A stretch of 64,000 nt of DNA from Candidatus Poribacteria bacterium (lineage in GTDB: Bacteria > Poribacteria > WGA-4E > WGA-3G): positions 1,449,472 to 1,513,471 of the forward strand of contig CBDAUI010000002.1 in assembly GCA_965200205.1 (NCBI GenBank), in the 5' to 3' direction. Position numbers and translations under genes: made by a program. Shown one piece after another: positions 16,596 through 37,007 of the stretch (position 1 is its first letter; every line of letters starts with the position of its first letter). Below the pieces are notes generated by a model that saw only the letters and a program-made list of their open reading frames with translations, was not told where the DNA came from and did not search any database.

Positions 16596-19500
16596 ATGTT
16601 CACCGGTTTTCAACAAGTTTTAGCTGCATGCATCGCGAAAACAGAGGAAAATACAGATCAACCCGACGATGCACAGCACGACGACGAATCCCAAGCGGAA
16701 TTAGAAATCGCAACCGATAATAATTCCGTAGATAATACTGAACAGACAGACACCCCGGCTCCAGAGCAGAACGGAACCGAAGAGGGTGATGAAGTGTCGC
16801 CCGTATCGGAGGATGATACCTCATCTGATCCTGTAGACGAGAGTACGGAGACACACGCCGACGATGATCCGGTCGTCGTGGATGAAGACGCTGAGTCACA
16901 TGATAACGATGTTTCTAATAAGTCAGATGTAGAAGAAGCAGCTGGTGACGAGGTTTCTAACACAGCACCTCCAGATGCTGACGACGAACCTGATGAATCA
17001 TTAGCAGACGCTGATTCGGTCACAGAGGACGATACAACGTCAGAGCCTGCGGACGCTTCGCCTGAAAAGGAAACCGAAGACACTGCAGATGACAGTCCAC
17101 AGGTTGCCGACAACGAAACAATAGAAACGGAAGCACAAGAATCAGATGAAATAGACAAAGACGAAGATACCCAAACCGTACCCGTACCCGAACCTGATCC
17201 TCCAGCATTGGAACTCGGTATTGTTGAAGAGATTTATGATTTTGTGGAGATGTTTGACCAAAGCACCGTTTCGGGTACAGAACAAGCATCCGCAAATGGA
17301 ACGGATTGTGCAGGCGGCGTTACCAAACCTGCAATCTTTGAACATCCAATCCCAACAGAAACCGCAAAGATTGATTATACCGTCTCACTCCCCGATACTG
17401 ATGACCAAGAACGGCTCTGTTTACACTTTTTCATCGGTTTGCGCGACGGTGTCGTATTTGACGACGAGACGCGACAACCCGGCGGTGTGAAGTTCGCTAT
17501 CGAAATTTTCGACCTACACAATAATGTAGACTTGGAAGCCCCCCCAAATAGATGTTTTGAATCGACAGCTACAGAGTGTTGTTGGACAGAACATGGGATT
17601 GACCTGACAGCCTACGCTGGCAAAGAGATCGTCATATCTTTTTTGACGGAATGCAATGTAGCCGGTAACAGTAACTACGCATGGGCATTGTGGGGCAAAC
17701 CAGCGTTAGGGAAATTCAGACAGACACGCCTCCGAAAAGCGAGACGAGACCCAGAACCGGAAATCCGTTGTGGTGTGGCACTTCTACACTTCAGTGATGA
17801 AAAGACCGAGTTCATTGCGTTTAACGTGCCGACATCAACTGCGGTCTCCGAACTGACAAGTATTTGTCTTGAATCCTCGAAATCCGAAAAGTCGCCAGTC
17901 AAAATAGGACTATATACGGCAGTTCCTAAATTAGAAATTGTGAACATAGGTGCGACAACAGCCATTGTTGCTGCCGGTGAAGACTTTGAGGTTCAATGTA
18001 CTGTCCGGAATGTCGGTACAGCACCGCTCGGACGGTCAGATGATGCCCGGGTTTCTATTAACGGTGTGAAATTACGACGCGGACGCCCGCGACAGAGTAT
18101 TAAAGGGCTCGAACCGGGTGAAGAGTCCTCTATCTCTTGGGTAGCGCGCCGCTTTTCACAGCCGACGCTAACAACAGTCGGTGTTTCACTGAAATGTCTC
18201 ACCTCAGCCGGTGAAGATCGGAAAACGGTACAAGGACACATTGAGATCCGACCAACACCCCCTAAACTCAACGCCAAAGTTGTGAAAGAACTTTACACCT
18301 ACACAGCGGAAGACGGTAGCGTTGTGATGGGAAACAAAAATCTTCGGATCGTTTTTGTTCGTGCTATTGATGCACCCGCTAAAGCTAACAACGCCTCACC
18401 GGCCGACAGCGGTTTCGCTTATTATCTATTATTTGTCGCGAAGGGGGGCAACTATCAACAAGTTGCATCCTGTCCTGCGCTCTCTGAGGTTACTTATTTA
18501 GATGCTGCCCAGAACCGTCAAACAACCCGACTTGCCCCCACAGACTATCAACTTGCGGGAAACAGTCGCGGCGAATCTATCGTTCGATTTAGCGGCGCAC
18601 ATACCGATACCGACGGTGTGAAATGGAACTATGAGATGCAGTGGACACTCGCTGAAGATGCAACGCGAGTACAAACAGAATCTCATCTGCAAACCGATGG
18701 CGATAGAGAACTCCTCGCTTTCCGCGGTCCCATGCTTTACGCTGGACAAGGACGAAATCAAGAGAAGAAAACGGCAGCACTCTTTCCCGGACTCGAATTT
18801 TTAGAGAGCGACGAGATTTCTTCAAGCCCGCGCGATGCAGCACCACCCCTCAACAACCGCCTTGTACCGCATCCCTATAAAATTACGGTGCCAGTAATGG
18901 CAGTTGAGATGCAGAAATCGGTTGTCGGTATTATCTGGAATCCGCTTGACACTTGGGACAGCGAAAACCGGACGCTCTCAGCGATATTCGCCTCACCGAA
19001 TTGGCATCAATATCAGAAAAATCATGCCCTCGGTGTATTCCTACCCACTATACCCGAATGGGTTCAGGAAAATCACACAGAGGCATCTATCCCGTACCCG
19101 CTGATTTCATCACGTCCGCTCTCTATCAAAGCCGAAATTATTGTTGATGGCAGAGCCTCAATTGTAGATGCTGTGAAGCATTGGACAGATGCCTACGGCA
19201 CACCCGAACCGCTCCAACCACCGCGCAGCGACGAGGAAGAGGTACTGCTTTCACGGCACGGATTCATGCATACAACATGGGACGAAAATACCGGTAAATC
19301 GCAGCACTGTGTGGATTGGGCTGCGCACAATGAACCCGGTTTTGGCACACTTCTCTGGTACGATTACCTTGCTACAAAAGATGCACAAGTTAAGGAACGG
19401 GTGCAGGAAATTGTGAAAAATACTGTAGCCGACACCGGAGTGGAAGGTTTAGCTGCCCGCGGCTCCTGCCATATCTTACGATGGGAGTTCCCATTCTATG

Positions 19501-20660
19501 TCGGCAACGTCGCCGCAGCGTTAACTTATATGGAAGCAGAGGCACAGCAACGAATCACAACACAAGAGTCGGATGGAAGTTGGCGGTGGCATCCGAAAAA
19601 CGAGAAAACTGCGAGGCTTGGAGAAGCTGGAGAAGCAGTTCTCGGCACCTGTGCGGATGCTGCCCTCCTCCTCCTGAAACACGCGCGTATCACTGGTAAC
19701 CAAGCTTCGCGTGCGGCAGGTTTGAAAGCACTCGACTTCATGAAGCAATTCTCAATCCCACGCGGGGCGCAGATGTGGGAATGCCCGATGTATCAACCCG
19801 ATGTCCTCGCGGCAGCACATGCGATCGGGAGTTATGTTGAGGCTTACGAACTTACCGGTGAGAAAGCACACCTCAAACAAGCAACGTACTGGGCAAAAAC
19901 GTCGCTACCGTTCCTTTACCATTGGCATCTGCCGGACCGCCCCGGCATGCATTTCGCCTCAATTCCAGTTTTCGGTACAACTTTCTATACGCACCCTTGG
20001 TTTGGTGTGCCAGTCCAGTGGAACGGATTAGTCCTCGCCTACTATCTCCAACGCTTGAACCAACACGTCGGAGATGGACACTGGCATCAAATTGCTGAAG
20101 GGATTACCGTAAGTGCGATGTATCAACAGTGGGATGATGGCGAACTGAAGGGCACCTATCCAGATGGGTTCTACGGTTTCTGTACCGAAGGTAAAGGACC
20201 ACATCTGAACCCAGAAGATATTATGGTAAACGTCTATACACTCCGAGGTCTTGATCCCGGCATTAAAACTGCTATTGTTGACGACGTTCATCTCAGTTCG
20301 GGAGCAAAGATAGATAAGTTTACACGAACCGATGCTGGACAACTCAACTATCAACTCAGTTACGTTGAAGGGGAAGTCAGTTACACCCTTATTACGGGTT
20401 ACGGATGTTCACCACAAAAACTTCAAGCGCGCTACGAATTCGCATCACCTCCGGAGGAACTCGAAATCTCAGACGCAGCGGAAGCTCCAGAAGAGGATGC
20501 GTCTTCCAACACCCCAAAAAAATACGCTGAAACTGAGATACCAGCCGTGGAAACGCTCGAAAACGTTGAATCTGGATGGACCTATATTCAAGAGAAAGAT
20601 GCAATATTGGTAAAGTACCTGCACCCGACCACGGATGTGCAGTTTGAACTTTCGAGATAG
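16596..20660 (+). CDS. large (1354 aa) protein with ~200-aa acidic Asp/Glu/Thr/Ser-rich low-complexity N-terminus, beta-rich middle and alpha-helical (alpha/alpha-toroid-like) C-terminal region; function unknown
   Basis: continuous ORF, low-complexity acidic N-terminal region, no recognisable catalytic motif. Confidence 0.55.
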   Translation: MFTGFQQVLAACIAKTEENTDQPDDAQHDDESQAELEIATDNNSVDNTEQTDTPAPEQNGTEEGDEVSPVSEDDTSSDPVDESTETHADDDPVVVDEDAESHDNDVSNKSDVEEAAGDEVSNTAPPDADDEPDESLADADSVTEDDTTSEPADASPEKETEDTADDSPQVADNETIETEAQESDEIDKDEDTQTVPVPEPDPPALELGIVEEIYDFVEMFDQSTVSGTEQASANGTDCAGGVTKPAIFEHPIPTETAKIDYTVSLPDTDDQERLCLHFFIGLRDGVVFDDETRQPGGVKFAIEIFDLHNNVDLEAPPNRCFESTATECCWTEHGIDLTAYAGKEIVISFLTECNVAGNSNYAWALWGKPALGKFRQTRLRKARRDPEPEIRCGVALLHFSDEKTEFIAFNVPTSTAVSELTSICLESSKSEKSPVKIGLYTAVPKLEIVNIGATTAIVAAGEDFEVQCTVRNVGTAPLGRSDDARVSINGVKLRRGRPRQSIKGLEPGEESSISWVARRFSQPTLTTVGVSLKCLTSAGEDRKTVQGHIEIRPTPPKLNAKVVKELYTYTAEDGSVVMGNKNLRIVFVRAIDAPAKANNASPADSGFAYYLLFVAKGGNYQQVASCPALSEVTYLDAAQNRQTTRLAPTDYQLAGNSRGESIVRFSGAHTDTDGVKWNYEMQWTLAEDATRVQTESHLQTDGDRELLAFRGPMLYAGQGRNQEKKTAALFPGLEFLESDEISSSPRDAAPPLNNRLVPHPYKITVPVMAVEMQKSVVGIIWNPLDTWDSENRTLSAIFASPNWHQYQKNHALGVFLPTIPEWVQENHTEASIPYPLISSRPLSIKAEIIVDGRASIVDAVKHWTDAYGTPEPLQPPRSDEEEVLLSRHGFMHTTWDENTGKSQHCVDWAAHNEPGFGTLLWYDYLATKDAQVKERVQEIVKNTVADTGVEGLAARGSCHILRWEFPFYVGNVAAALTYMEAEAQQRITTQESDGSWRWHPKNEKTARLGEAGEAVLGTCADAALLLLKHARITGNQASRAAGLKALDFMKQFSIPRGAQMWECPMYQPDVLAAAHAIGSYVEAYELTGEKAHLKQATYWAKTSLPFLYHWHLPDRPGMHFASIPVFGTTFYTHPWFGVPVQWNGLVLAYYLQRLNQHVGDGHWHQIAEGITVSAMYQQWDDGELKGTYPDGFYGFCTEGKGPHLNPEDIMVNVYTLRGLDPGIKTAIVDDVHLSSGAKIDKFTRTDAGQLNYQLSYVEGEVSYTLITGYGCSPQKLQARYEFASPPEELEISDAAEAPEEDASSNTPKKYAETEIPAVETLENVESGWTYIQEKDAILVKYLHPTTDVQFELSR

Positions 20661-23348: not shown

Positions 23349-23735
23349 TCAGGAAGCGTTCTCTTCAACTACCGCCTGTGTGTCCGCTTTTGTTTTCAGG
23401 AACTCATAGAACTCATAGAGCGTTTCTTTGTCTTTCTCTGTAAATTCCATCATTCCTTTGAACATAGCATTGACTTTAGGATCCGCCAACAGATCACTGT
23501 AACTTTTTTCAGTTTTTCCGAGCAGATAGTCGGTGGTAACTTTTAGGGCGTCAGAGAGACTTGAGAGTGTTTTAAAGGAAGGTTTTCGGGTCCCGGACTC
23601 GAATTGCGAAATGGCGGCGGGCGTTAGGTTTGCCTCTTTCGCGAGTTCGGTCTGTGTCAACTTCAATTCATGACGACGTGCTTTTATACGTGAGACGACT
23701 TTGTCTACGTTCGGTTGTTTCGATTCTTTGGTCAC
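23349..23735 (-). CDS. XRE-family (Cro/C1-type) helix-turn-helix transcriptional regulator
   Basis: LKLTQTELAKEANLTPAAISQFESGTRKPSFKTLSSLSDAL HTH_3 signature; divergent from the giant operon. Confidence 0.75.
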   Translation of the reverse strand: MTKESKQPNVDKVVSRIKARRHELKLTQTELAKEANLTPAAISQFESGTRKPSFKTLSSLSDALKVTTDYLLGKTEKSYSDLLADPKVNAMFKGMMEFTEKDKETLYEFYEFLKTKADTQAVVEENAS

Positions 23736-24167: not shown

Positions 24168-27100
24168 ATGAGAATGCGTAGTAGATGTGAATATCGCTCG
24201 CAATGTTTTGTTTCTGTAATCAGTGTGTTGACGTTTTTGGTGTCCGCGCTGTTATTTACCGGATTGTCGAATACGGTGCATGCGCAGACGGTTTCAAGCA
24301 CCGGCATGAAAACCGCTGCGATCCAGATTCGAGATGATCTCTCTATCGGTAACATCCGAAAGGATATTGCCCGTCTTTCGAGTCTTGAGAGCCGCGTAAC
24401 AGGGTATCCCCAAGCCGCAAGCGGGAGTAAGTACATCTTTGACCGCTTCGTAGAAATCGGTTTGCAAAACGTTGAGAGTCGTGAATTTCCGGTCACTGTC
24501 CCGATTGATCACGGTAATAGTGTCGTTGAGGTGCTTTCGCCTGATGCGTCCGTACTGCATACCTTTGAACTCACCCCACTTTGGCCGAACCTTGTACGCA
24601 CTTCACTTTTAGCAGACGCAATTAAACACACTGTATTAGCAGGGGAATCCCTCGAAGACATTGCTCACAGCTTCCAAGTTGATGAAGCCGCTATCCTTGC
24701 AGACGAACGCAACCAATTTTTGGCGACACCTGTGGTTGAAGGGAGTACTGTCTATATCCCGACAGGTGGGTTATCGGGTCCGCTTCTTTACGGTGATGAC
24801 GCTGAACTCGCTGATTTTAACGACACCAATATCGGTGGATTCTGGTACGAACTCCAAGATGGTGATACGCTCACAACGCTCGCACGACGTTACCGTATCA
24901 CTGAAGCCAGCATTACTGACGACATACTCAATGAACACTTGCAAAAAGCGTCCGATGGCATTGATAACGATGAAGACGGCACCATTGATGAATACGGCGA
25001 GATACCGCTGCTCTCGGAGATTCGAGGCTGGGCGACAGACGGTATCGATAACGATGCTGACGGTTGGACAGATGAAGTCCCCGGCGACGATACCGATGGT
25101 ATTGATAATAACAACGATGGACAAGTTGATGAAACAGGCGAATTCATTGCTGCAAGTGAATCAAATGTCTTTATCCCAAAAGGCGCGATTGTCCTCCTCG
25201 ACTTCAACTCCAGTACCCGCTACATTAACGCCGCAATGCTCGGCGGCACCGCAGTCATTTTCATCCAACCTGAAACGACGATTCGAGGCGAAGCGGAAAA
25301 CAAATTTGGCACCGTCCCCGCTAATATCCCACGTTTTTGGATTTCTAAAACAGATGCCGATGTCCTCACGGCTCTGCTTGAAGAACAGCACTCACAAGGT
25401 AATCAGGTCAATGTTCGCGTCCGAGGTAAAATGACTTGGGAACGCCGTGTCGGACAGAACATACGAGGTTTTTTAGAGGGCGGCGATCCAACGCTCAGCG
25501 ATGAACTCGTCGTTATCACAGCCTATTACGATGCTATGTCCGTAGTCCCCGCAATGGCACCCGGTGCGGATCCGACCTGTGGGATCGCAACGCTCATGGA
25601 ACTCGCACGCCTCTTTAGTCAACCCCAGTATCGTCCCGGCTATTCCGTCCTTTTTGTCGCAGTTGATGGACATTTCCAAGGACTCGCTGGTATGCGGGCA
25701 TTCATGGAAGGTATCGGGCAGGATATTGTCGGTGCTGATACAGACTCACCCGGTACACCGACAATGCACGGACTCCGACGCGGCCTCTCTACAGATATTA
25801 TTGAATTTGAGGAACTCGGTAGAAGACTCTTGCTCTCAATTGACCGGAGTGTCCTCGTTGATCTACCCTCCAATTTCTTCCACGGTATACACCAAGTCAA
25901 AGCAGATATCGAATCACTCGGAATAACACTCGACGGTTTAGCAGAGACCCGCGCCGAAATCGACCACCTCACGAATCAACAGCGCGATTTTTCCGAGCGT
26001 CAAAAGAAGCAAGCAGACAGGAATCGGAAACGAGAGAAACAGGGATTTACCGGCGAAGAGAAGAGCCTTTTGTTAGCGAATCTCGCACGTTCAAAGAAAG
26101 AGGCTTTGCAAACAACACACTTCCTTCGAGATGTCGTCGGGAGACTCGCTGAAGTCCGTACAGTCGCGCTCAACACAAGCCGAACCGCTCAAACCGAATT
26201 AATTGAGACAATCGCGCTCCCGACCGCACGGCTTGATGTGTGGGCAGTCAACAAAATTATTCGCGCCGTTGAAGCCGGTGAGGTAGATGAATACGCGAAA
26301 CATCCCAACGATGCCTATCTGCTTCCAGAACAACAAGGCTCAGACTGGTATATCCCCGTACCAGAAGACCTTCCAGAAGAACTCGCCCCTGACATAGAGA
26401 CGCTTAACAGAGTCCTCGCAGATTGGGAGATGAGCGATAAACGCAAATTTGCCCTGATGTGGACTCCCGAAAAAGTACTCGATCGACACCTCGACCTCCA
26501 CAGCCTCAATAAAGCGAAGAAAGCACGTAGCGTCCTAAATGCTGCTCCCGATACACAAGAAAATGCCGTCGAAAAAGAGAAGCAACTCCTCGAAAAAGTG
26601 CTCTCACAAATCTCTGACAGCCAGCCTATAGAAGATGAAATTAAGGCAAGCATCCGCAAACTTAAGGAGACAGCATTGTGGAAAGGTGCTGATGATGGAA
26701 AGCTGCTTTACGGCGGGGAATACCTGTCGAAAGCCGGTGTGGAACGCCTCAACACAATTGACACGCAACTCCGACAACGCTTCGCTGAATCCGATGATAC
26801 CGTTGACACAGGTGTATTGGTTGCAGACTTACTGAAAGATAAGCAGGGGATCTTTGAAATCGCCCTCCGAAACGCGCGATTGGAGCGAACCCGTATCCAG
26901 AATTTGCTAGCCACATCCCAAACGTTAGGACGTGAGTACCTCGCTGAAGAACAACTCATCCTGGAACACTATCTATCGGAGGGTGAGGTGGAACAGGCAC
27001 TTGATCTCCGTTCACGTGTTGCGGCATATATCAATGAAAAAGAGCTGTTAGCAACAGTTAAAAAACGCGCAGAAACGGATCTTGTGGCACTCGACAACCT

Positions 27101-30100
27101 GCTCAAACGTCTGCCAACATTGAATACGGATGTTGATGAAGAGACGAAAAACCTCCTACGCGACAACATGCTAACGCTACGGAATGCTCGCTTCCGCAAC
27201 ATTCAGAGTCGTATTGAAAAGATGTTGCGAATTGATACCGACGAATACAATCGAAAACTCGGACAGATTGAAGCAGCGATCGCACTCCAGGACCTGTTCA
27301 ACCGTTACTACACCTCGCTCTTTATTAGTGTTGACCTCTCCTCCCAATCGGATCAGTTCGGTGTATTCAACAAAGGGTGGTTCTACGATCAAGAACCCGA
27401 ATTTGTGCTCCGGCGTGAGTTTGCAAGTATCGGTAATAAACTTGCAACCTACGCACAAGATGCCGACTTCGGGGTCCGTATCCGTAAACTCTGGCAGTGG
27501 ACAGATGACCAAATTCGACAAGCCGTTATGGCGCGTCAATGGACAGTCGCAAACGGGATTTCTGATAAGGCTGCTCTCGAAGGGAAAACCCTCGAAACTT
27601 TGCTCAGTTCGCATTTCGGTAAACTGACTGGACTCAGCGGTGTCAGCCGTCTCATGAAGATGCAGTTCGAGCAGTGGCGCAATCAAGGCGAACCTTCCGA
27701 GGATATGCTCAAGGACATGGACTATATCCGAAAAGAGGTTGAACGCTTCATCCGAAACGATGTACGCACCGCAAAGAAAAATCGGAAGAACAGCATTCGG
27801 ACGCGCGAGCAGCTTGACGCAATGCTACGACTCCGACATGAAGACCCAGATACCTTTACCGATGATGAAATTGAGGACATCAAAACGCTGATTTCGATTG
27901 CTGGACTCGGCGGACAGTCGAATTTCGTGAACGCCATCTCGGCAAGCGGCGGAAAAACATGGAAAACATACATCCCGGGTAAAATCGCTTTTGATAGTGA
28001 AGTCGCGACGCTTGTCGGAAAAACCGGTATCGCTTTCGCAACGATTGAAGATGCTCGTGTTTTAACCGATACACCGCTTGATACAATTGATCGCGTCGAT
28101 TTACGTGAAGGTGGTAACCTGCATCAGCAGGCACAGACACTCGCATCAATACTCATCCAAGCACTCCGCGACGAAGAGATGCCGACCGCCGCCCGGGTCG
28201 GTAATTTCTATTGTAACTTGTTCGGTGATGTCGTGGAATTTGATGCACGCGAGTCCGCCCTCCCGAATAAACCGGTGCCTTACCCGATATTGACCCTCCG
28301 CAGAAAGCATAAAACCATGATGGGGGTCCGTGGCGACCTGTTTGTTATGGGAGATAACAAAGGCAACTTTGAGGTGCCTGGGTTAGCTATGGAAGGTAGA
28401 GCGACACGTCGCCTCGGTGGTGCACAAGAGGTTGAGGCATATATCCTTGACAAGGATTCAGGCGATATCGTCTACGCGCCAGATTTAGGGAACTACGGCG
28501 CGAAACTACTTCCGAATAAAGTACCTATTAACACGCGTCGCCGCGGCTGCCGTGTCGTTACATTCCCTTGTGTGTCCACAACTATCTATGATCTCGTTGA
28601 CCAGCGATACCTGCGAACCTTGCGAGAACTTGAAATTTACGATGCCCTCACCGATAGTGCACCGGAAAAATTCGGAATGTCCAAACCGTGGCAACAAGAG
28701 GGTGTCTCTGCAGCGGAACCGATCGCACTCGTCTATAGTGAACCGAACACCCGTATTAAAATCGGGATGGCTTATGGGCAAATAGGTAAACGCCTTTTGC
28801 TTATCAAAGCAACGAAGAGTGGTATGAAGAACCCGACGCTCTATACAGGTGAAGGGTTTGTCGTACGTGAAAACGGGCGAATTCGTATGACTCCCTACGT
28901 CGTTGTCCGAGATATGTGGTGGCTTGACGAGAACCGCTCACGCCTCTATAAACGCTTCGGTATCTCCAGCGACCGGCTTGATCAACTCCATCAGTATGCC
29001 AGCGAATATCTTGCACGCGCTGAAACGGCCCTCCTCCAAAATGACTATCAGCAGGCACTCAAACTTGCACGCGCAGCCTGGGGGTACGAATCACGCGCAT
29101 ACCCTGATGTCAAGCAGACCGGTAACGATGTCGTCAACGGCGTGATGTTCTACCTCGCCCTGCTGATGCCGTTCGCCTACTTCATGGAACGTCTCGTTTT
29201 CGGGTTCCCCAACATCCACAAGCAGATTATCGGATCGTTCGGTATCTTTTTACTTGTGTTCTTCTTCTTAAGTCAGGTTCACCCTGCATTCCAGATTACG
29301 ACAACCCCGATAATTATCTTGATCGCGTTTGTTGTACTCGCATTGACAGTTATCGTCATCAGCATTATTATCCGAAAATTTGAAGAGCAGCTCGAAAAAA
29401 TTCGGCAAGAAGGGAACAAGGTTTACAAGGCAGATGTCGGTCGATTGAGCGCAAGTTCCGCAGCGTTTAGCTTGGGAATCTCCAACATGCGGAAACGGAA
29501 AGGACGTACGATCCTGACCTGTTGTACACTGGTCATTCTGACCTTCACTGTCATTTCGTTCACCTCTGTCCGGACATTTATGCATCCGAACAGAACGAGT
29601 CTCCCACAAGTAACACCGCGCTATACAGGACTTCTCATCCGTGACCAATACTGGCGTCCGCTTGAGGAACCGGTATTGACCTCTGTGCGCAACGATATGC
29701 AGAAAACGCAGATCACAGTCCCAGACTTAGAACGGCTCCTGGAACGTAAAAACGAAATTCTTATCAAAGACGGACAACAACCGATCAATATCTCAGAAGC
29801 CATTACAGATTTAGAGCAGGAAGGCTTTATCCAACAGGTAGACGAAGAATCCATCGTGACTGTCAGGAATAGGATTGCCCCGCGCGCGTGGTATCAGTCT
29901 TCGGGTACAGGTGATCAGTCGTTTGTACAGTTGACCCGTACACCGAACGAAATAGATACATCACCACCAACACATCAACTGACAGGTGAAGCACTGACCT
30001 TCGCTGCGAATATGCTCGTCGGGATGGGCGAATCAGAACCGGATGTTACGGGTATTGATAGATACCTGCAATACGGAAAGTGGTTCGATCGTGCTGATGC

Positions 30101-31493
30101 CAGCGAATGGCCCACGGAGTGGCCTTACGCGATTGTTCTCCCGAAAGGGATGGCAGAATTGCTGAAGATTACCGAAAGCGATATGGGTAAAGCGACTGTT
30201 TCTGTTTACGGTGCAGATTTCACCGTCGTCGGCGTGCTCGGTATCGGGTTCAAAGACCTCACCGATAATGACGGCGAAGAACTCACGCCGGTCGATTATC
30301 AGTTGATGCAACAGCAGCGGAGTCGGGGTGCTACTGGCGATGAGACGCTGGAAGGCGAATTGCAGAAATACCTACACCTCACACCAGACAGCATAGCCAT
30401 CCTGCCTTATGAGGTAGTTATGAACCAAGGTGGCACACTCCGAAGTGTCGCCGTTAACATGGAACCGGGAGAAGACGATCCGAAGATGCTCGGTGCTATC
30501 GATAAGTTGGATCTCATCATGGCACCCCTCATGAACCGTATCGCACTCGATTTCTTCGTCGGACGTGATAAAGACACATACCTGTATAGCAGTATCGGGA
30601 TGACGAGTTTCAGCGGGATGGGGAACCTGTTTGTCCCAATTTTGATTGCCGCACTTATTGTCCTTAATACAATGCTCGGCGCAGTCTATGAGCGTGTCCG
30701 AGAAATTAGCATTTACAGTTCAGTCGGTCTTGCACCGGTACATATCGCGTTCCTATTCCTTGCTGAGGCATGCGTATATGCTATCGTCGGTGCTGTCTTG
30801 GGATACCTCATGGGACAGGCAATAGCAACAACGCTTGTCCACTTCGGTTGGCTCGCAGGGTTGACACTCAACTATTCATCGATGTCAACTGTCGTGGCGA
30901 CAATCATCGTCATGATCGTCGTGCTTCTGAGTACGCTTTATCCTGCAATCAAAGCCTCAAGAATGGCTGTCCCAGATATTGAGCGTAAATGGAAGCTCCC
31001 GGAACCGGAAGGCGACGTTTGGCATTTCAACCTGCCTTTCACAGTCCTTGAGGAAGAGGCACTCGGCTTGAACGTCTTTATGCGTGACTATTTTGAAGCG
31101 CACGCGGACGAATCCGCAAGCGATTTCTATACCGATCAGGTCGCCTTCAGCGAAGCAGCGGAAGATTCCTATCAGATCGGTATGATGGTATGGTTGGCAC
31201 CTTATGATTTAGGCGTGAGTCAGTCGATCCAGTTCGTTACATCGCCGGTCGGAGGCGAGGAGGAGGACCTCTACAAAATCACATTGGATGTCAATCGTGA
31301 AAGCGGTGAGATCGCTTCTTGGAAACGTGTGAACCGACGGTTCCTGAACCTCCTACGGAAACAGTTGCTCATCTGGCGTACGTTCAGCGTTGATGTTCGG
31401 GCGGAGTTCCATGAACGCGGTCGGACAGAAAGCACGGAAGCGTCGGAAGCAGAGACAGCACAGATGGATCCAGCATTGACACCGGCGGATTGA
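24168..31493 (+). CDS. giant (2441 aa) exported multidomain protein fused to a MacB/FtsX-type ABC permease. N-terminal signal peptide precedes Ca-binding-like DxDxDG repeats, a degenerate M28-peptidase-like domain and a ~1000-aa coiled coil. A TM bundle then leads into the MacB-like periplasmic domain and FtsX permease helices.
   Basis: signal peptide VLTFLVSALLFTGLSNTVHA; GIDNDEDGTIDE/GIDNDADGWTDE/GIDNNNDGQVDE repeats; M28-like PGADPTCGIATLMELARLF and FVAVDGHFQGLAGMRAF; long heptad-rich region; SLGISNMRKRKGRTILTCCTLVILTFTV (MacB TM1) and C-terminal FtsX-like helices. Confidence 0.8.
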   Translation: MRMRSRCEYRSQCFVSVISVLTFLVSALLFTGLSNTVHAQTVSSTGMKTAAIQIRDDLSIGNIRKDIARLSSLESRVTGYPQAASGSKYIFDRFVEIGLQNVESREFPVTVPIDHGNSVVEVLSPDASVLHTFELTPLWPNLVRTSLLADAIKHTVLAGESLEDIAHSFQVDEAAILADERNQFLATPVVEGSTVYIPTGGLSGPLLYGDDAELADFNDTNIGGFWYELQDGDTLTTLARRYRITEASITDDILNEHLQKASDGIDNDEDGTIDEYGEIPLLSEIRGWATDGIDNDADGWTDEVPGDDTDGIDNNNDGQVDETGEFIAASESNVFIPKGAIVLLDFNSSTRYINAAMLGGTAVIFIQPETTIRGEAENKFGTVPANIPRFWISKTDADVLTALLEEQHSQGNQVNVRVRGKMTWERRVGQNIRGFLEGGDPTLSDELVVITAYYDAMSVVPAMAPGADPTCGIATLMELARLFSQPQYRPGYSVLFVAVDGHFQGLAGMRAFMEGIGQDIVGADTDSPGTPTMHGLRRGLSTDIIEFEELGRRLLLSIDRSVLVDLPSNFFHGIHQVKADIESLGITLDGLAETRAEIDHLTNQQRDFSERQKKQADRNRKREKQGFTGEEKSLLLANLARSKKEALQTTHFLRDVVGRLAEVRTVALNTSRTAQTELIETIALPTARLDVWAVNKIIRAVEAGEVDEYAKHPNDAYLLPEQQGSDWYIPVPEDLPEELAPDIETLNRVLADWEMSDKRKFALMWTPEKVLDRHLDLHSLNKAKKARSVLNAAPDTQENAVEKEKQLLEKVLSQISDSQPIEDEIKASIRKLKETALWKGADDGKLLYGGEYLSKAGVERLNTIDTQLRQRFAESDDTVDTGVLVADLLKDKQGIFEIALRNARLERTRIQNLLATSQTLGREYLAEEQLILEHYLSEGEVEQALDLRSRVAAYINEKELLATVKKRAETDLVALDNLLKRLPTLNTDVDEETKNLLRDNMLTLRNARFRNIQSRIEKMLRIDTDEYNRKLGQIEAAIALQDLFNRYYTSLFISVDLSSQSDQFGVFNKGWFYDQEPEFVLRREFASIGNKLATYAQDADFGVRIRKLWQWTDDQIRQAVMARQWTVANGISDKAALEGKTLETLLSSHFGKLTGLSGVSRLMKMQFEQWRNQGEPSEDMLKDMDYIRKEVERFIRNDVRTAKKNRKNSIRTREQLDAMLRLRHEDPDTFTDDEIEDIKTLISIAGLGGQSNFVNAISASGGKTWKTYIPGKIAFDSEVATLVGKTGIAFATIEDARVLTDTPLDTIDRVDLREGGNLHQQAQTLASILIQALRDEEMPTAARVGNFYCNLFGDVVEFDARESALPNKPVPYPILTLRRKHKTMMGVRGDLFVMGDNKGNFEVPGLAMEGRATRRLGGAQEVEAYILDKDSGDIVYAPDLGNYGAKLLPNKVPINTRRRGCRVVTFPCVSTTIYDLVDQRYLRTLRELEIYDALTDSAPEKFGMSKPWQQEGVSAAEPIALVYSEPNTRIKIGMAYGQIGKRLLLIKATKSGMKNPTLYTGEGFVVRENGRIRMTPYVVVRDMWWLDENRSRLYKRFGISSDRLDQLHQYASEYLARAETALLQNDYQQALKLARAAWGYESRAYPDVKQTGNDVVNGVMFYLALLMPFAYFMERLVFGFPNIHKQIIGSFGIFLLVFFFLSQVHPAFQITTTPIIILIAFVVLALTVIVISIIIRKFEEQLEKIRQEGNKVYKADVGRLSASSAAFSLGISNMRKRKGRTILTCCTLVILTFTVISFTSVRTFMHPNRTSLPQVTPRYTGLLIRDQYWRPLEEPVLTSVRNDMQKTQITVPDLERLLERKNEILIKDGQQPINISEAITDLEQEGFIQQVDEESIVTVRNRIAPRAWYQSSGTGDQSFVQLTRTPNEIDTSPPTHQLTGEALTFAANMLVGMGESEPDVTGIDRYLQYGKWFDRADASEWPTEWPYAIVLPKGMAELLKITESDMGKATVSVYGADFTVVGVLGIGFKDLTDNDGEELTPVDYQLMQQQRSRGATGDETLEGELQKYLHLTPDSIAILPYEVVMNQGGTLRSVAVNMEPGEDDPKMLGAIDKLDLIMAPLMNRIALDFFVGRDKDTYLYSSIGMTSFSGMGNLFVPILIAALIVLNTMLGAVYERVREISIYSSVGLAPVHIAFLFLAEACVYAIVGAVLGYLMGQAIATTLVHFGWLAGLTLNYSSMSTVVATIIVMIVVLLSTLYPAIKASRMAVPDIERKWKLPEPEGDVWHFNLPFTVLEEEALGLNVFMRDYFEAHADESASDFYTDQVAFSEAAEDSYQIGMMVWLAPYDLGVSQSIQFVTSPVGGEEEDLYKITLDVNRESGEIASWKRVNRRFLNLLRKQLLIWRTFSVDVRAEFHERGRTESTEASEAETAQMDPALTPAD

Positions 31494-31860: not shown

Positions 31861-33849
31861 TTGGCGAGAGAAAGAGTATCACAAGCAGATGAATGGCAAG
31901 CTTGGGCGCAGCGATACGACATTGAAGGCGGTATCCGTACCTTTGAGTCGGGGTTGACGGTTAAAGTGTTCGTCGGAGCACTCTTCGTCGGCTTGTTGAT
32001 GATGCCAGGCTCCATCTATCTCGGTTATGTATCCGGCGAATCCGGTGCGGGCGCAGCACCCTGGGTTGCGGTTATTCTATTCACCGAACTCGCGCGGCGC
32101 TCCTTTACAACCGCCCGGCGGCAAGAACTCTATATGCTCCTCGGTTTAACCGGGGCAGCTGTCGGGAGCGGGATGCAGTACCGGAGTTTTATCTGGTACG
32201 CCTACTTTATCAATACCCCGCAGGCGGCTTCTTACGAAATCGCAGATAAAATACCGGCGTGGGTTGTACCCGCAGGTGATTCTGTCGGTGTGCTAACCCG
32301 GAGCCTGTTACACCCCGATTGGATGCTGCCTATCGGTATCTACCTCGCGGGAAAACTCCTCGGCACTTTGCGATCTGTTAGTGCACAGTATATCCTGTTC
32401 CGACTTACAGCAGACCTCGAACGGCTGCCGTATCCGATGGCACCTATTACCGCACAGGGCGCAACCGCACTCGCAGAAACAACAGGTAAAGAAGAGACTT
32501 GGCGATGGCGGGTCTTCTCTATCGGTTCTATGGCAGGACTCATCTGGGGGTTCCTCTATATCGGTGTTCCATCGCTTACCGGGGTCATGATGAGCACCCC
32601 AATTCAGATCCTGAAAATCCCGTGGATAGATTTTACGCAGAGCATTGAAGGCTTCGCACCGACAGGTGTTTTCGCACTCCGAACCGATTTCGGACAAATG
32701 CTCTTCGGGTTCGTGCTGCCGTTCCCGATCGTAATGACAGAGTTCATCGCCGCAATGGCGACGCAATTCGTCTTGAACCCACAAATCCTCTACCGATTTG
32801 AAATACTCCACCAGTGGAAACCTGGATTGGACGTTCGCGCCGTCGGTCTGTACAACGGACTCGACTTCTGGATGTCCGCTGGCATGGGGAAATCTTTCAG
32901 TTTCGCAATCGTCGGGATGGCGGCTTCGATTCCGATGCTCTTTAAAATGCGGAGATCCAAGAAAACCGCAGGCGAACGCGGCTCCTTCGCACCACCACCA
33001 AATCGAGGCGATTTCCCGATATGGTTGATGGGATTGTTGTGGCTCGTCGGTATGGGTGGGTTCGTCTGGCTTATCCATTGGATGGTGCCTAATTTCCCAT
33101 TGAGTTTCTTGTTAGGCTTCGCGTTCCTATACACACCGCTCAACTCGTATATCACCGCACGGACTTTCGGAGTCTTAGGGCGAGACCTATTTGATATACC
33201 GTACCTCCACGAAATTACCTTTATCCTGAGTCGATACGAGGAGGTAGACATCTGGTTCGCACCGCTGCCTGACGAAGATTACGGACGCGGCACACAGAGC
33301 TGGCGAGTACTTGAATTGACAGGTACAACTTTCACCTCAAATCTTGCTGGCACACTACTGATTATGCCGATTCTAATTGTCAGTGGTATTGTGGTGATGC
33401 ACTTTATCTGGAAAATCGCACCGATCCCGAGTGCACAGTATCCTTATGCACAGATGATGTGGCCCATCAACGCTACAAACGAGTGTCTCTGGAAAACGTC
33501 ACTGCGAGATGGAAATAGCCAGATGCTGCAAGCGATTCGCGGCGATTATGTCGCCGCCGGGTTTACTGGAAGTCTCGCCATCTACGGGATGTTGTGGTAC
33601 TTCAAACTCCCCTCAATGTGGTTCTACGGCATTGTCGGTGGTATCGGAGCTGATCCCGGTAGTATGGTTGCCCGACTACTCGGGGCAATCATCGGGCGCT
33701 TCTATATGATTAAGCGGTTCGGTATGAAACGCTGGTATATGTTCAACCCGGTACTCGCAGCAGGATTCGCTTGTGGCGTGGGTCTCATCGGTATGGGAAC
33801 CGTCGCAATCGCGCTCGTCTCGAAAGCTGTCATTGTTAAACCGTTTTGA
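31861..33849 (+). CDS. large polytopic integral membrane protein (>=12 predicted TM helices), family unknown (possibly oligopeptide-transporter-like)
   Basis: 662 aa, many hydrophobic helices, AAGGAG RBS; in operon downstream of giant permease fusion. Confidence 0.55.
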   Translation: MARERVSQADEWQAWAQRYDIEGGIRTFESGLTVKVFVGALFVGLLMMPGSIYLGYVSGESGAGAAPWVAVILFTELARRSFTTARRQELYMLLGLTGAAVGSGMQYRSFIWYAYFINTPQAASYEIADKIPAWVVPAGDSVGVLTRSLLHPDWMLPIGIYLAGKLLGTLRSVSAQYILFRLTADLERLPYPMAPITAQGATALAETTGKEETWRWRVFSIGSMAGLIWGFLYIGVPSLTGVMMSTPIQILKIPWIDFTQSIEGFAPTGVFALRTDFGQMLFGFVLPFPIVMTEFIAAMATQFVLNPQILYRFEILHQWKPGLDVRAVGLYNGLDFWMSAGMGKSFSFAIVGMAASIPMLFKMRRSKKTAGERGSFAPPPNRGDFPIWLMGLLWLVGMGGFVWLIHWMVPNFPLSFLLGFAFLYTPLNSYITARTFGVLGRDLFDIPYLHEITFILSRYEEVDIWFAPLPDEDYGRGTQSWRVLELTGTTFTSNLAGTLLIMPILIVSGIVVMHFIWKIAPIPSAQYPYAQMMWPINATNECLWKTSLRDGNSQMLQAIRGDYVAAGFTGSLAIYGMLWYFKLPSMWFYGIVGGIGADPGSMVARLLGAIIGRFYMIKRFGMKRWYMFNPVLAAGFACGVGLIGMGTVAIALVSKAVIVKPF

Positions 33850-33971: not shown

Positions 33972-34358
33972 TATGCAAGATTTCAAGAAGTTGACGGTTT
34001 GGAAAAAATCTCATGATTTAACTATGAGAGTATATAATCTCATGATTTAACTATGAGAGTATATAATTTAACATCCCAATTCCCTCGTGAAGAGATATAT
34101 GGGCTTACAAGCCAAATCCGGCGCGCGTCTACTTCAATTCCAACGAACATTGCCGAGGGATGTGGAAGAAAGAGTTCTGCTGAATTCGCGCGTTTTCTTC
34201 AGATCGCAATAGGTTCAACGAGTGAAACAGAGTAGCTCCTTTTTCTTGCGCATGATCTTAAATATCTCGATTCTGATCAATATGATCAGTTACAGGATAT
34301 GATTATCAGCGTGAAGAAGATGCTAATTACCTTATTAAAAAGACTCGAAACCTAGAAT
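33972..34358 (+). pseudogene. four-helix-bundle protein (23S rRNA intervening-sequence protein family, TIGR02436-like) pseudogene disrupted by a 29-bp tandem duplication and a second frameshift
   Basis: MQDFKKLTVWKKSHDLTMRVYNL..., EIYGLTSQIRRASTSIPTNIAEG, and C-terminal ...IISVKKMLITLLKRLET in three different frames; duplicated ctcatgatttaactatgagagtatataat creates in-frame TAA. Confidence 0.6.
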
Positions 34359-34435: not shown

Positions 34436-35473
34436 ATGGATTGGACTGTTTTTGGCTGGGCGGGAATACAACTTGAAATCCCTACGACATGGGAACTGAG
34501 TGGTCTCAGTGGTGATCAGAAGACGGGGTATCTCCGGCTTGATGACGGTGAGATGCCGCGCCTCGAACTCAAATGGGCACCTACCCGAAAGAAAAAACCG
34601 GATCTCCACTCAACGCTTGACGAATACTTCAAGTTGATTCGCAAAACCTATAAAAGAGGCACCGACCTCTCCTTCCGCCGGAATGTTGACCTGATCAAAG
34701 ACGCTGCGTTTTTTGAGGGACGCACCGTGCTCGGTTTTAGCTGGAAGGGGAGTATCCGTGCCAACGGGTTGATCTTCCACGCAGGAAAACGGATTACAAT
34801 CGTACAGGTGATGGGACGCCTTAAAGAGAACTGGAGACCGACAGTACTACGGGTCTTTCAATCTATTATAGACCGCAGTGATGACCCGCTGACATTGTGG
34901 AGTGCCTACGGTCTGAAGTTGGGCGTACCAAAAGAATATAAATTGGAACGTCAGAAACTTCTCAGCGGCTACCTGCTGTTCGCGTTCGGCGCGAAACCGT
35001 CACGCTTTCAGATACCGATAAAAATAGCGAAATTGGCAGCGCACCGTCTACGAAAAACTGACGGTCCTCTGGGAAAAATAGACTTCTCACCACCCGACAG
35101 AGGACGCCTGAGCGTCGAGCGATACGGTCCAGCTGAAGTCATGCTCGGTGACTATAAAGACACACAGAATCCACTGGAGGCATGGTTTCGCGTCAAATAC
35201 GCAAAAGCGATTCGCGGATACGGGTTTGAGGTGTCAACTGACACAGAGACAGAAGATGAACGCCTGACACTTATCGGAGAACAGACACGCCTCTATGACA
35301 GTGTTCCCTTCAGCCCAGTGCTGATGTTCGATAAACTATCCAAGCGGACGGCACTTGTGTTCCATCTCTGGCATTGTCATCATTCCAATCGTATCTATGT
35401 CATCCAGTCTATCGGTAGTAACAACGCGCACCCGACAGTCGAAAAAGTCGCTAACAGTATTGAATGCCATTAA
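34436..35473 (+). CDS. hypothetical soluble protein (345 aa)
   Basis: continuous ORF in the operon; no recognisable motifs. Confidence 0.5.
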   Translation: MDWTVFGWAGIQLEIPTTWELSGLSGDQKTGYLRLDDGEMPRLELKWAPTRKKKPDLHSTLDEYFKLIRKTYKRGTDLSFRRNVDLIKDAAFFEGRTVLGFSWKGSIRANGLIFHAGKRITIVQVMGRLKENWRPTVLRVFQSIIDRSDDPLTLWSAYGLKLGVPKEYKLERQKLLSGYLLFAFGAKPSRFQIPIKIAKLAAHRLRKTDGPLGKIDFSPPDRGRLSVERYGPAEVMLGDYKDTQNPLEAWFRVKYAKAIRGYGFEVSTDTETEDERLTLIGEQTRLYDSVPFSPVLMFDKLSKRTALVFHLWHCHHSNRIYVIQSIGSNNAHPTVEKVANSIECH

Positions 35474-35671: not shown

Positions 35672-36133
35672 ATGATCAATAGACTCTTATATACTCTCAG
35701 ACTTAAGAAACGTCCTGATGTGGATCGCACGCAGGTTATGAAGTCTTTTCCGGTTCGGAATCAGGTCATAAATTGGGAAATAGACGACAAAGGCGAAGCC
35801 TCACTGGTCATTCCGCAGAAGGATAAACTCTGGATACGGCTCGCCGGTAGGTTTTTTATGCTGCCTGATAAAAGGGTGATTGTCTTAGATTCCATCGGAA
35901 CTTATGTGTGGAAGATGTGTGACGGCAAACATACGATCTCGCAAATTGTCAAAGGTGTACAAAACCAGTACCAGTTGACGCGCAAAGAGGCGGAAACATC
36001 GCTTTTTACGTTTATGCAGCAACTCGGAAAAAGGAACTTCATCCAGTTCGCTATCCCAGAACAGAACGCACACGCGACACCGGAATCCGAACCTCAAAAA
36101 CCGGGAATCTTTGGCTTCCTACAGCGGCGATAG
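35672..36133 (+). CDS. PqqD-like protein (RiPP recognition element fold)
   Basis: VIVLDSIGTYVWKMCDGKHTISQIVKGVQNQYQLTRKEAETSLFTFMQQLGKRNFIQF matches the PqqD winged-helix pattern. Confidence 0.55.
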   Translation: MINRLLYTLRLKKRPDVDRTQVMKSFPVRNQVINWEIDDKGEASLVIPQKDKLWIRLAGRFFMLPDKRVIVLDSIGTYVWKMCDGKHTISQIVKGVQNQYQLTRKEAETSLFTFMQQLGKRNFIQFAIPEQNAHATPESEPQKPGIFGFLQRR

Positions 36134-36150
36134 TATAGCATTTACGCAAC

Positions 36151-36176
36151 CCCCCTGCAGGCGGGGTTTATTGACG
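36151..36176. repeat. REP-like element, partial (CCCCCCTGCAGGCGGGGTTTATT)
   Basis: shares CTGCAGGCGGGGTTT core with other copies. Confidence 0.4.
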
Positions 36177-36194
36177 ATCAGCAAGGAGAAAAAA

Positions 36195-37007
36195 ATGAAC
36201 GAACAAACAGAAATGGGGAATATTGAAGCAGCTTTCGCCGAAACACCGGAACGTTTCGAGCGTCTACTTCCCAAAGAGAACACAGTCCGTGTCCGAAACC
36301 TCATCAAACGCTACGAGATGGGGACACAGACCGTCGATGCCCTCCGCGGTGTCAATTTCCAAATCCAGCGCGGTGAATACATCTCTATCATGGGTCCCTC
36401 CGGTTCAGGAAAATCGACGCTCTTCAATATGATTGGCGGCCTCGACAAACCGACTGAAGGCAGAGTCTACATCGACGAGGTAGACATCGCACAACTCGAT
36501 GCTTACGAACTCGCATGGCTCCGCTGCCGAAAAATCGGCTACATTTTTCAGTCGTTCAACCTCATCCCAGTTATGACGGCACTCGAAAACGTCTCACTCC
36601 CGATGATTTTCGCCGGTATGAGTGCCGACGACAGCAGAGAAAAAGGTGTTGATCTCCTGACGCTCGTTGGACTCGGAGACCGTGTACAGCATAAACCGTT
36701 GGAACTCTCCGGTGGACAGCAGCAGCGCGTCGCAATCGCACGCTCCCTCGCAAACGACCCCGCGATTGTCCTCGCCGATGAACCCACCGGAAACCTTGAC
36801 ACCAAAACAGGTTTAGAAATTATTGATCTACTCCGTCGTCTCAACGCTGAAAATGGTGTGACAATTATCACGGCGACACACGACCACAAGATGTTAGATG
36901 TTTCCGACCGTATCTTCCACATGGAGGACGGTAAAGTCGATAAAATCGAATCGCGCGATGAAATTGATCTACAAGTCGGTAAATTAGACGGCGAAGAGGT
37001 AGGATAA
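36195..37007 (+). CDS. ABC transporter ATP-binding protein, MacB/LolD/FtsE-like
   Basis: Walker A GPSGSGKST, signature LSGGQQQRVAIARSL, Walker B ILADEPTGNLD; AAGGAG RBS before MNEQ. Confidence 0.85.
   Translation: MNEQTEMGNIEAAFAETPERFERLLPKENTVRVRNLIKRYEMGTQTVDALRGVNFQIQRGEYISIMGPSGSGKSTLFNMIGGLDKPTEGRVYIDEVDIAQLDAYELAWLRCRKIGYIFQSFNLIPVMTALENVSLPMIFAGMSADDSREKGVDLLTLVGLGDRVQHKPLELSGGQQQRVAIARSLANDPAIVLADEPTGNLDTKTGLEIIDLLRRLNAENGVTIITATHDHKMLDVSDRIFHMEDGKVDKIESRDEIDLQVGKLDGEEVG

Follow-up and report, generated by a model that had tools for sequence, protein, structure and literature searches.

This analysis concerns a giant gene in a 64,000-nucleotide (nt) stretch of DNA, hereafter the window, from a Candidatus Poribacteria bacterium (assembly GCA_965200205.1, contig CBDAUI010000002.1, positions 1,449,472 to 1,513,471). 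The gene encodes a 2441-amino acid (aa) protein in which a secreted head, made up of a domain with the fold of M28 aminopeptidases and a protease-associated (PA) domain, is fused to a MacB-type permease from the superfamily of ATP-binding cassette (ABC) transporters of type VII (Table 1). We are highly confident that the M28-like domain is genuine and that it has lost the canonical two-zinc catalytic centre. On this basis we propose that the head, devoid of its di-zinc site, has a non-hydrolytic binding or regulatory function and is driven by ATP-powered mechanotransmission through the permease, an account to which we would assign an overall probability of about 0.6.

The original prediction, made from the letters of the window, had placed an M28-peptidase-like domain with substituted catalytic residues at nt 25440-25760. 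The strings that it quoted are all present in the protein (AYYDA, aa 452-456, nt 25521-25535; PGADP, aa 465-469; LMELARLF, aa 476-483; VDGHFQGLAG, aa 499-508, nt 25662-25691), and the domain assignment holds, as the Pfam model Peptidase_M28 (PF04389) matches aa 431-514 with 31.1 bits, above its gathering cut-off of 21.3 bits (E = 2.4e-7). With the single sequence this match reaches only positions 1-78 of the 193 in the profile. A profile built from 43 family members, however, matched the PA-containing M28 aminopeptidases 2ek8 (E = 3.9e-31) and YwaD (6hc6; E = 1.1e-25) over both halves of the fold. That is, the interval first proposed is genuine but covers only the first third of the domain, the remaining ligand positions lying at Asp1056 and Asp1301. 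Compared with the PDB as a single sequence, the M28 region is closest to Nicalin (E = 5.3e-6), and the Aeromonas/Vibrio leucyl aminopeptidase comes second. The fold and the order of its parts, with an N-terminal segment, a PA insert and the M28 core, are the same as in 2ek8 (Aneurinibacillus), YwaD (Bacillus subtilis) and the Aeromonas/Vibrio enzyme 1amp, and the scaffold motifs xYDS, PGA, LLELAR, nLD and TPxDT of these aminopeptidases are retained. Unlike the giant protein, M28 aminopeptidases are small secreted enzymes with neither a permease fusion nor helical insertions.

The active site differs as well. At the positions that hold His97, Asp117, Glu151, Glu152, Asp179 and His256 in M28 aminopeptidases, Tyr, Pro (or Asp), His, Phe, Asp and Asp, respectively, are found in the window protein. 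The register was obtained by counting along the alignment that HMMER gave with the Aeromonas enzyme 2anp (residues 89-160 of the chain), and aligning 2ek8 with the 43-member family profile gave the identical register. His97, a zinc ligand in the HxD motif, is thus replaced by Tyr453 (AYYD), while Asp99 is kept as Asp455. The bridging zinc ligand Asp117 (GADD motif) falls on Pro469 and its neighbour Asp116 on Asp468, but the loop is one residue shorter in the window protein and the placement is ambiguous. The general base Glu151 and the zinc ligand Glu152 correspond to His502 and Phe503. The Glu-Glu pair had therefore been rightly seen as replaced, although by Gly-His, a register that is off by one (Gly501/His502). 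Using hmmalign with 197 relatives, the zinc ligand Asp179 was found to be kept as Asp1056 (nt 27333-27335), whereas the zinc ligand His256, part of the yHTpxDt motif, is replaced by Asp1301 within LTDTPLDT (nt 28068-28070). In the family-profile alignment, this second block pairs sDHesF...yHTPnDTLDK of 2ek8 with FDSE...LTDTPLDT of the window protein. A rescue of the active site by a register shift was considered and rejected, because the core segments offer no spare His or Glu-Glu pair: His502 and His534 are the sole histidines in the first core segment (aa 425-540), which has no Glu-Glu pair, the second segment has no histidine, and the third has only His1319, in its last helix. Mapping the ligands onto the alignment thus did not recover the complete set at shifted positions, and the loss of the canonical site stands.

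The loss of the canonical di-zinc set is no local accident but characterises the family as a whole. Residues were counted over 197 aligned members. The His97 column contains Tyr in 108 (55%) and His in 73 (37%) of the sequences, Asp99 is Asp in 100%, and the Asp117 column is variable. At the position of Glu151, 173 members (88%) have His and a single one has Glu; at that of Glu152, Phe, His, Trp, Tyr or Asn is found, usually a bulky aromatic residue (Phe, Trp or Tyr). Asp179 is Asp in 173 members (88%), and the His256 column is occupied by Asp (76), Gly (51) or Asn (28), with His falling outside the eight commonest residues. The Zn1 pair (Glu/Asp152 with His256) is found in none of the 197 sequences, and a Zn2-like triad (His97, an acidic residue at 116/117 and Asp179) in 64 of them. 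Numbered as in the window protein, two residues of the domain (D455 and P461) do not vary between archaea and bacteria, and conservation is 88% or higher at Y454, H502 and D1056. In the N-terminal segment, R76, G79, Y80, P140 and N141 are invariant in the family alignment. The degenerate site, present in all 197 aligned members, is therefore ancestral to a family shared by bacteria and archaea.

This family is widespread. An exhaustive homologue search with aa 40-560 (clusters at 50% identity, E <= 1e-30) returned 396 clusters, the best-scoring matches being mostly 1450-1700 aa long, and in a profile search these proteins proved to combine M28 and FtsX domains in the same way in Bathyarchaeia, Thermoproteota, Alkanophagales, Armatimonadota and WOR-3. 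A scan with 8 sequences found 221 relatives among the species genomes of GTDB; the best 80 of these comprise about 57 from Poribacteria and about 22 from Armatimonadota and allies. In Poribacteria, more than 120 clusters cover the giant protein over its full length or nearly so, with 69-100% identity, under names such as "hypothetical", "M28 family peptidase" or "LysM...". Archaeal members have neither the LysM domains nor the long helical insertions. At an Armatimonadaceae locus (L072, 10001-19663), the giant protein gives a tblastn match of 9.6 kb, roughly double what is usual in Armatimonadota, which suggests an even larger variant or a tandem arrangement.

Two helical insertions, the first of about 505 aa and the second of about 165 aa, break up the M28 fold of the window protein. 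Joining aa 425-530 to aa 1240-1345, with and without the N-terminal segment and PA domain, did not extend the single-sequence match in either Pfam or PDB searches, which stayed at profile positions 1-78; the second half was then located by the 43-member profile and hmmalign. In short relatives the motifs GH...LDLS...DSEP...TPxDT are contiguous. The spacing between His502 and Asp1056 is 554 aa in the window protein as opposed to a family median of 34, and that between Asp1056 and Glu1278 is 222 aa as opposed to 79. The first insertion is graded in length, from 34 aa in most members through 106-246 aa in some of those with 1600-1790 aa to about 555 aa in Poribacteria, and its full-length form was seen in Poribacteria and in one 2451-aa cluster. 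It matched no sequence in the PDB.

The structure was predicted with AlphaFold in two parts. The first model (aa 146-1345, from an alignment of 66 rows) has a mean pLDDT of 74 and a pTM of 0.55; its PA/M28 core is confident (pLDDT about 85-96), including the strand that bears Asp1056 (model residues 903-911, where D911 of the modelled fragment is nearly invariant). Both insertions are wholly helical in this model, with single helices of 48-74 residues. The model also shows two LysM-like beta-alpha-alpha-beta units, the first at model residues 6-53 and the second interrupted, in agreement with the two stretches matched by Pfam LysM (PF01476; 26.0 bits, cut-off 20.9). The first LysM domain, situated between the N-terminal segment and the PA domain, is absent in short family members. 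The PA domain itself scores 17.8 bits in Pfam in the window protein, under the cut-off of 23.9, and PF02225 is precomputed for many homologues. In Foldseek searches the closest structural matches of the model were Nicalin (1.1e-4), transferrin receptor and nicastrin. Nicalin (a member of the BOS complex), transferrin receptor 1 and nicastrin are non-peptidase homologues in which, as in the head of the giant protein, an aminopeptidase fold with a PA domain serves as a membrane-tethered binding module. Unlike the giant protein, these eukaryotic proteins are single-pass and have no ABC module; moreover, Nicalin keeps His97 and has Gly-Lys where the window protein has His-Phe. The family profile scores 2ek8 far above Nicalin (3.9e-31 versus 3.1e-15), and common descent with Nicalin in particular is no more than a possibility.

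A domain that has lost its catalytic residues could be a mere chance resemblance of motifs or the decaying remnant of a pseudogene, and the limited Pfam match, which did not grow when the halves were spliced together, would fit such a reading. We nevertheless rule it out, with a residual likelihood that is practically nil, on the grounds of the profile match to active M28 enzymes over both halves, the confident fold prediction, an intact 7.3-kb open reading frame (ORF) in the approximately 57 Poribacteria species genomes mentioned above, and the pattern of substitution. For the latter, nonsynonymous divergence (dN) was computed from nine Poribacteria orthologues; synonymous divergence (dS) was saturated (>1.3 or undefined), and only contrasts in dN are reliable. 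Over the whole gene dN ranges from 0.05 to 0.3. The M28 core segments, to which the lowest dN of the gene belongs, have values of 0.02-0.09, at or below those of the permease (0.04-0.08) and two to five times under those of the first helical insertion, which has the highest dN in the gene (0.11-0.25), and for the two closest pairs of orthologues a rough omega of 0.01-0.05 was obtained. The "dead" domain is not decaying; it is among the most constrained parts of the gene and under purifying selection.

The second part of the argument concerns the permease. Pfam FtsX (PF02687) matches aa 2156-2266 with 45.7 bits (cut-off 25.5), whereas MacB_PCD remains under its cut-off in the window protein (19.1 versus 27 bits), and the family profile matches MacB (5lil; E = 4.9e-23) over MacB residues 270-457 and 471-655. 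In the second AlphaFold model (aa 1336-2441, pLDDT 81, pTM 0.72), the top Foldseek matches of the permease are MacB (5gko; 7.9e-11), a pneumococcal MacB-like transporter, LolCDE, YbbAP and HrtBA, all of which are type VII ABC transporters. We therefore regard the giant protein, with high confidence, as a type VII ABC component. The NCBIfam models for FtsX (12.6-20.7 bits against cut-offs of 225-255), LolC and MacB all score far under their cut-offs in the window protein, and because of this the permease is best classified, by profile, as a member of the superfamily that is not an orthologue of any named system. It is preceded by three extra transmembrane helices, an odd number that would place the ectodomain outside and the N-terminus of the permease inside, and followed by a C-terminal cytoplasmic domain, many residues of which are invariant across archaea and bacteria. 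Neither this domain nor the beta-sandwich region (aa 1348-1545) has a match in Pfam.

The giant gene is followed by genes for an OPT-like (oligopeptide transporter) permease, a 345-aa protein, a PqqD-like protein and an ABC ATPase, and these five genes stand in the same order in almost all loci of Poribacteria and Armatimonadota for which the flanking sequence suffices. The ATPase scores 213-237 bits with its best NCBIfam models (LolD, at 237 bits, DevA, YbbA, MacB and FtsE), all under the equivalog cut-offs, and an intact set of motifs (Walker A, signature, Walker B and H-loop) can be read from its sequence. It is 64-72% identical between Poribacteria and Armatimonadota, the window ATPase being 72% identical to that of the Armatimonadota operon, and is likely the motor of the giant permease. 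In four Poribacteria loci (L004, L005, L024 and L045) the distance between the PqqD-like gene and the ATPase gene exceeds that in the window by 4-5 kb, implying an insertion between the two. An Armatimonadota operon (CP070648.1, L002 16201-16848) encodes between these two genes an extra 215-aa protein consisting of only an FtsX domain (6.3e-18), which has no equivalent in the window and may be a second permease subunit.

The 662-aa OPT-like gene is always directly downstream of the giant gene, also in two archaeal loci (L001 and L003), where a homologue immediately follows it. The window protein is 44% identical to its Armatimonadota counterpart and, over its full length, 26% identical to the archaeal one (E = 3e-59), which in turn matches the Pfam OPT model (PF03169; 9e-19, 67.9 bits, cut-off 25.8). 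Its homology to OPT would thus hold only by transitivity. The 345-aa protein matches nothing in Pfam or NCBIfam and is 27% identical to its Armatimonadota counterpart (E = 7e-28). The PqqD-like protein, which is above the cut-off in Pfam, is under those of all the NCBIfam PqqD-family models.

Taken together, the following mechanism can be envisaged. Mechanotransmission to a periplasmic partner is an established mode of action in this superfamily (PMC7668044; PMC12646458). In FtsEX, periplasmic movement driven by the ATPase acts on EnvC, which works through its coiled coil and degenerate LytM domain to activate hydrolases (PMC7668044), and YbbAP pairs an ABC transporter of type VII with a partner of hydrolase fold, TesA, which receives substrates (PMC12646458). 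By analogy, the LolD-type ATPase encoded four genes downstream of the giant gene would bind and hydrolyse ATP at the cytoplasmic face; this work would move the periplasmic domain of the permease, with no solute carried across the membrane, as in MacB, LolCDE, FtsEX-EnvC and YbbAP-TesA, and the movement would pass to the covalently tethered M28-like/PA head. The head would then bind, present or release a ligand without cleaving it. In Poribacteria, the head is probably attached to peptidoglycan through its two LysM domains, and the approximately 670 aa of added long helices may extend or gate it. That the head binds and does not cleave is the reading we favour, though not strongly, because four of the six canonical residues are replaced, Asp117 is doubtful, position 152 is taken by a bulky aromatic side chain, and the nearest relatives in structure are receptors.

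Several observations weigh against this account. The His at position 151 is 88% conserved and both Asp99 and Asp179 are kept; about a third of the members have the Zn2-like triad; and the title of the PDB entry 2anp describes an Aeromonas aminopeptidase mutant, E151H, as "functional". Some residual or altered catalysis is conceivable because of these features. The first model has a pTM of only 0.55, and its TM-scores in Foldseek are low because of the insertions. No ABC ATPase was found within 8 kb of the giant gene in the two archaeal loci, and the 662-aa protein has no direct match to Pfam OPT (PF03169) even at E = 10. Finally, a peptide as ligand is deduced from neighbouring genes only.

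The first group of these points would suit an enzyme with a remodelled site, in which Tyr/His453, Asp468, Asp1056 and His502 form a mononuclear or other metal centre, or in which His502 acts as the general base. The ABC module would in that case position or gate an active exopeptidase, which would supply the OPT-like permease with peptides or amino acids. Strong purifying selection on the segments bearing the pocket and the peptide-use genes around the archaeal loci (M20 peptidases and SBP_bac_5) would be in line with this as well. Against it, the Zn1 ligands Glu152 and His256 are missing in all 197 members, with a usually bulky aromatic residue at 152, the window protein has Tyr for His97 and a Pro aligned with the bridging Asp117, and the structures most similar to it belong to non-catalytic proteins of this fold. 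Furthermore, we know of no precedent for an M28 enzyme working with the set of residues found in this family. An active enzyme is thus an unlikely, though not negligible, alternative to a head that only binds. As for the non-catalytic scaffold or regulatory role that had been proposed from the start, the loss of the di-zinc set bears out its premise, whereas the role itself must be worded with caution, as the conserved His502, Asp455 and Asp1056 and the Zn2-like triad of 64 members allow for a metal site or a chemistry of a non-canonical kind.

The degenerate LytM domain of EnvC had been offered as the parallel for such a role. In support of this, a MacB/FtsX-type permease is present in the same polypeptide and a LolD/FtsE-type ATPase in the operon, so that the giant system shares with FtsEX-EnvC, as well as with FtsEX-PcsB/CwlO/RipC, a type VII ABC module, the same ATPase class, a degenerate peptidase-fold domain and long helices (PMC7668044), and the LysM domains suggest a common peptidoglycan context. 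On a strict version of the parallel, the degenerate head, fixed to peptidoglycan by LysM and accessible by way of the long helices, would bind and activate separate cell-wall hydrolases upon ATP hydrolysis. The two LysM domains and the insertion of about 505 and 165 aa of long helices into the head would fit this well, given that EnvC acts through its coiled coil and degenerate LytM domain (PMC7668044). The details differ, however. The degenerate fold is M28 in the giant protein and LytM in EnvC, no LytM match was obtained for the giant protein in a Pfam scan, and for the helical insertion no similarity to any solved protein was detected. The head is joined covalently to the permease where EnvC is a separate protein, and the permease, with its three extra transmembrane helices and C-terminal cytoplasmic domain, is nearer MacB/LolC than FtsX (NCBIfam FtsX, 12-21 versus 225-255 bits). 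The conserved partners are the OPT-like and PqqD-like proteins and not amidases as for FtsEX-EnvC, with no amidase or other wall hydrolase in the operon. Moreover, the core family, including its degenerate site, extends to Bathyarchaeia and Thermoproteota, where LysM domains and long insertions are lacking, and because of these archaeal members control of peptidoglycan hydrolases was probably not the ancestral role. We therefore hold a strict EnvC-like system to be improbable, somewhat more so than an active enzyme. The analogy is apt in its logic, but the giant protein belongs to neither the EnvC/FtsX family nor that of YbbAP-TesA by orthology.

With the other type VII systems (YbbAP-TesA, MacAB-TolC and LolCDE), the giant protein has the mechanotransmission permease fold in common. 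TesA is an active, separate SGNH hydrolase, whereas the hydrolase-fold partner of the giant protein is fused to it and lacks the canonical catalytic set. The operon has no evident adaptor or component of the outer membrane.

The nature of the ligand is the weakest step of the proposed binding function. A peptide or protein N-terminus is the most plausible candidate because the OPT-like and PqqD-like neighbours are conserved, and on the evidence of gene order it is a tentative suggestion, rather less probable than the binding function itself, that the system handles peptides jointly with the OPT-like protein. A scan of the intergenic gaps of the operon for small ORFs that could encode a precursor peptide yielded solely a truncated 23S_rRNA_IVP gene. 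As a speculation to which we would give little credence, archaea and bacteria could share an undescribed class of ATP-powered envelope machines in which a dead aminopeptidase/PA head recognises the free N-termini of proteins or peptides, a MacB-type module opens, closes or moves the head, cargo passes to or from a dedicated OPT-type channel, and the PqqD-like protein is a cytoplasmic peptide chaperone; such heads, as membrane-anchored and non-catalytic M28/PA receptors that abound in archaea, could be the prokaryotic sister group of the receptor domains of the Nicalin/nicastrin type.

Full-text literature searches returned no description of an M28-FtsX fusion or of the five-gene operon, and nothing relevant on prokaryotic Nicalin homologues or on M28 proteins of Poribacteria. 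Pseudo-peptidase domains and type VII ABC machines are both already known; what is new is their combination, in a conserved, uncharacterised operon of the sponge-symbiont Poribacteria and of Armatimonadota that has a shorter form in archaea. Type VII ABC systems such as MacAB, LolCDE, FtsEX and YbbAP are among the few machines that do mechanical work outside the membrane, and each new partner has revealed a new envelope process. The giant family is a widespread and unstudied member of this type, whose periplasmic "tool", a dead aminopeptidase fold, forms one chain with the permease. Should the head be a peptide receptor, the system would link two superfamilies of transporters for which no cooperation is known; should it be an EnvC-like switch, the same logic would be extended to another degenerate peptidase fold. 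In addition, the database label "M28 family peptidase" given to some members is probably a source of error when peptidases are counted in metabolic reconstructions of Poribacteria, Armatimonadota and Bathyarchaeia.

Table 1. Parts of the giant protein and the surrounding genes, with their positions in the window
Feature	Residues (aa)	Position (nt)	Strand	Basis
XRE-type HTH regulator, divergent from the giant gene		23349..23735	-	Pfam HTH_3, 59.4 bits
2441-aa ORF, secreted M28-like/PA ectodomain fused to MacB-type permease	1-2441	24168..31493	+	Open reading frame
Signal peptide, hydrophobic core aa 10-38, ...VHA/Q	1-39	24168..24284	+	Hydropathy and sequence reading; cleavage predicted
N-terminal segment of the M28 fold, RVTGYPG and WPNLV motifs	45-150	24300..24617	+	Family profile to 2ek8 residues 8-96
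LysM domain 1	151-198	24618..24761	+	Pfam LysM
LysM domain 2, split by acidic repeats	225-337	24840..25178	+	Pfam LysM stretch aa 227-250
PA domain core	336-399	25173..25364	+	Family profile to PA domains of 2ek8 and YwaD
M28 core segment 1	425-531	25440..25760	+	Pfam, PDB and family-profile alignments; pLDDT about 88-96
Helical insertion 1, in the loop after the 'EE' helix	541-1046	25788..27305	+	AlphaFold model, family spacing
M28 core segment 2, strand ...LFISVDLS... with Asp1056	1047-1077	27306..27398	+	hmmalign, model
Helical insertion 2	1078-1244	27399..27899	+	Helical in AlphaFold model
M28 core segment 3, FDSE...LTDTPLDT	1245-1335	27900..28172	+	Family profile to 2ek8 residues 342-408; pLDDT 86-95
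Beta-sandwich domain(s)	1348-1545	28209..28802	+	Strands at model-2 residues 13-210, pLDDT about 85-92
Helical linker and three extra transmembrane helices	1655-1674, 1683-1704, 1714-1749 (transmembrane helices)	28890..29414	+	Hydropathy; model-2 helices 292-342, 348-369, 379-414
MacB/LolC/FtsX-type permease	TM1 1778-1798, periplasmic domain 1802-2149, TM2-4 2151-2266	29442..30965	+	Pfam, profile, Foldseek
C-terminal cytoplasmic alpha/beta domain, about 150 aa	2284-2431	31017..31460	+	Model-2 residues 949-1096
662-aa polytopic membrane protein, putative distant OPT relative		31861..33849	+	Transitive homology
345-aa soluble protein		34436..35473	+	Conserved operon order
PqqD-like (peptide-binding RRE-type) protein		35672..36133	+	Pfam PqqD, 45.7 bits (cut-off 23.4)
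LolD/MacB/FtsE-type ABC ATPase		36111..37007	+	Pfam ABC_tran, 120.7 bits

Within the second LysM domain, the interruption consists of three acidic DGIDNDxDG repeats (aa 262-322, nt 24951-25133) that resemble calcium- or metal-binding loops. They match the MopE metal-binding motif weakly (17.6 bits, under the cut-off), and their pLDDT is below 50.

Upstream of the giant gene, the XRE-type gene keeps its place and its orientation in 45 loci of Poribacteria, even in distant ones with otherwise different upstream genes, and its product may regulate the operon in Poribacteria. Also conserved upstream, with 58-89% identity in 42 Poribacteria loci, is a 1354-aa ORF (nt 16596-20660) with no match in Pfam or NCBIfam. 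On the downstream side, a gene for a SelA/aminotransferase class-V-like PLP enzyme (nt 37174-38301) directly follows that of the ATPase and retains this place in 40 Poribacteria loci; at the archaeal locus L003, too, there are aminotransferase genes on the flanks. Between the OPT-like and 345-aa genes, a gap of 587 bp contains truncated or frameshifted remnants of a 23S_rRNA_IVP (four-helix-bundle) gene at nt 33973-34235, where a 60-aa ORF matches PF05635 (1.6e-25) over positions 15-73 of the 106 in the profile.

Around the two archaeal loci, URO-D-like genes, M20 peptidases and SBP_bac_5 oligopeptide-binding genes were found. Upstream of the giant gene, both loci also have a gene for a DUF6785/DUF6784 membrane protein (656-684 aa), either directly next to it (L001, 5811-7865) or one gene away (L003, 4521-6491). 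Lastly, the window carries at nt 12443-14296 a GmrSD-type restriction endonuclease (GmrSD_N, 1.2e-36; GmrSD_C, 4.9e-17), a defence gene unrelated to the M28-like domain.

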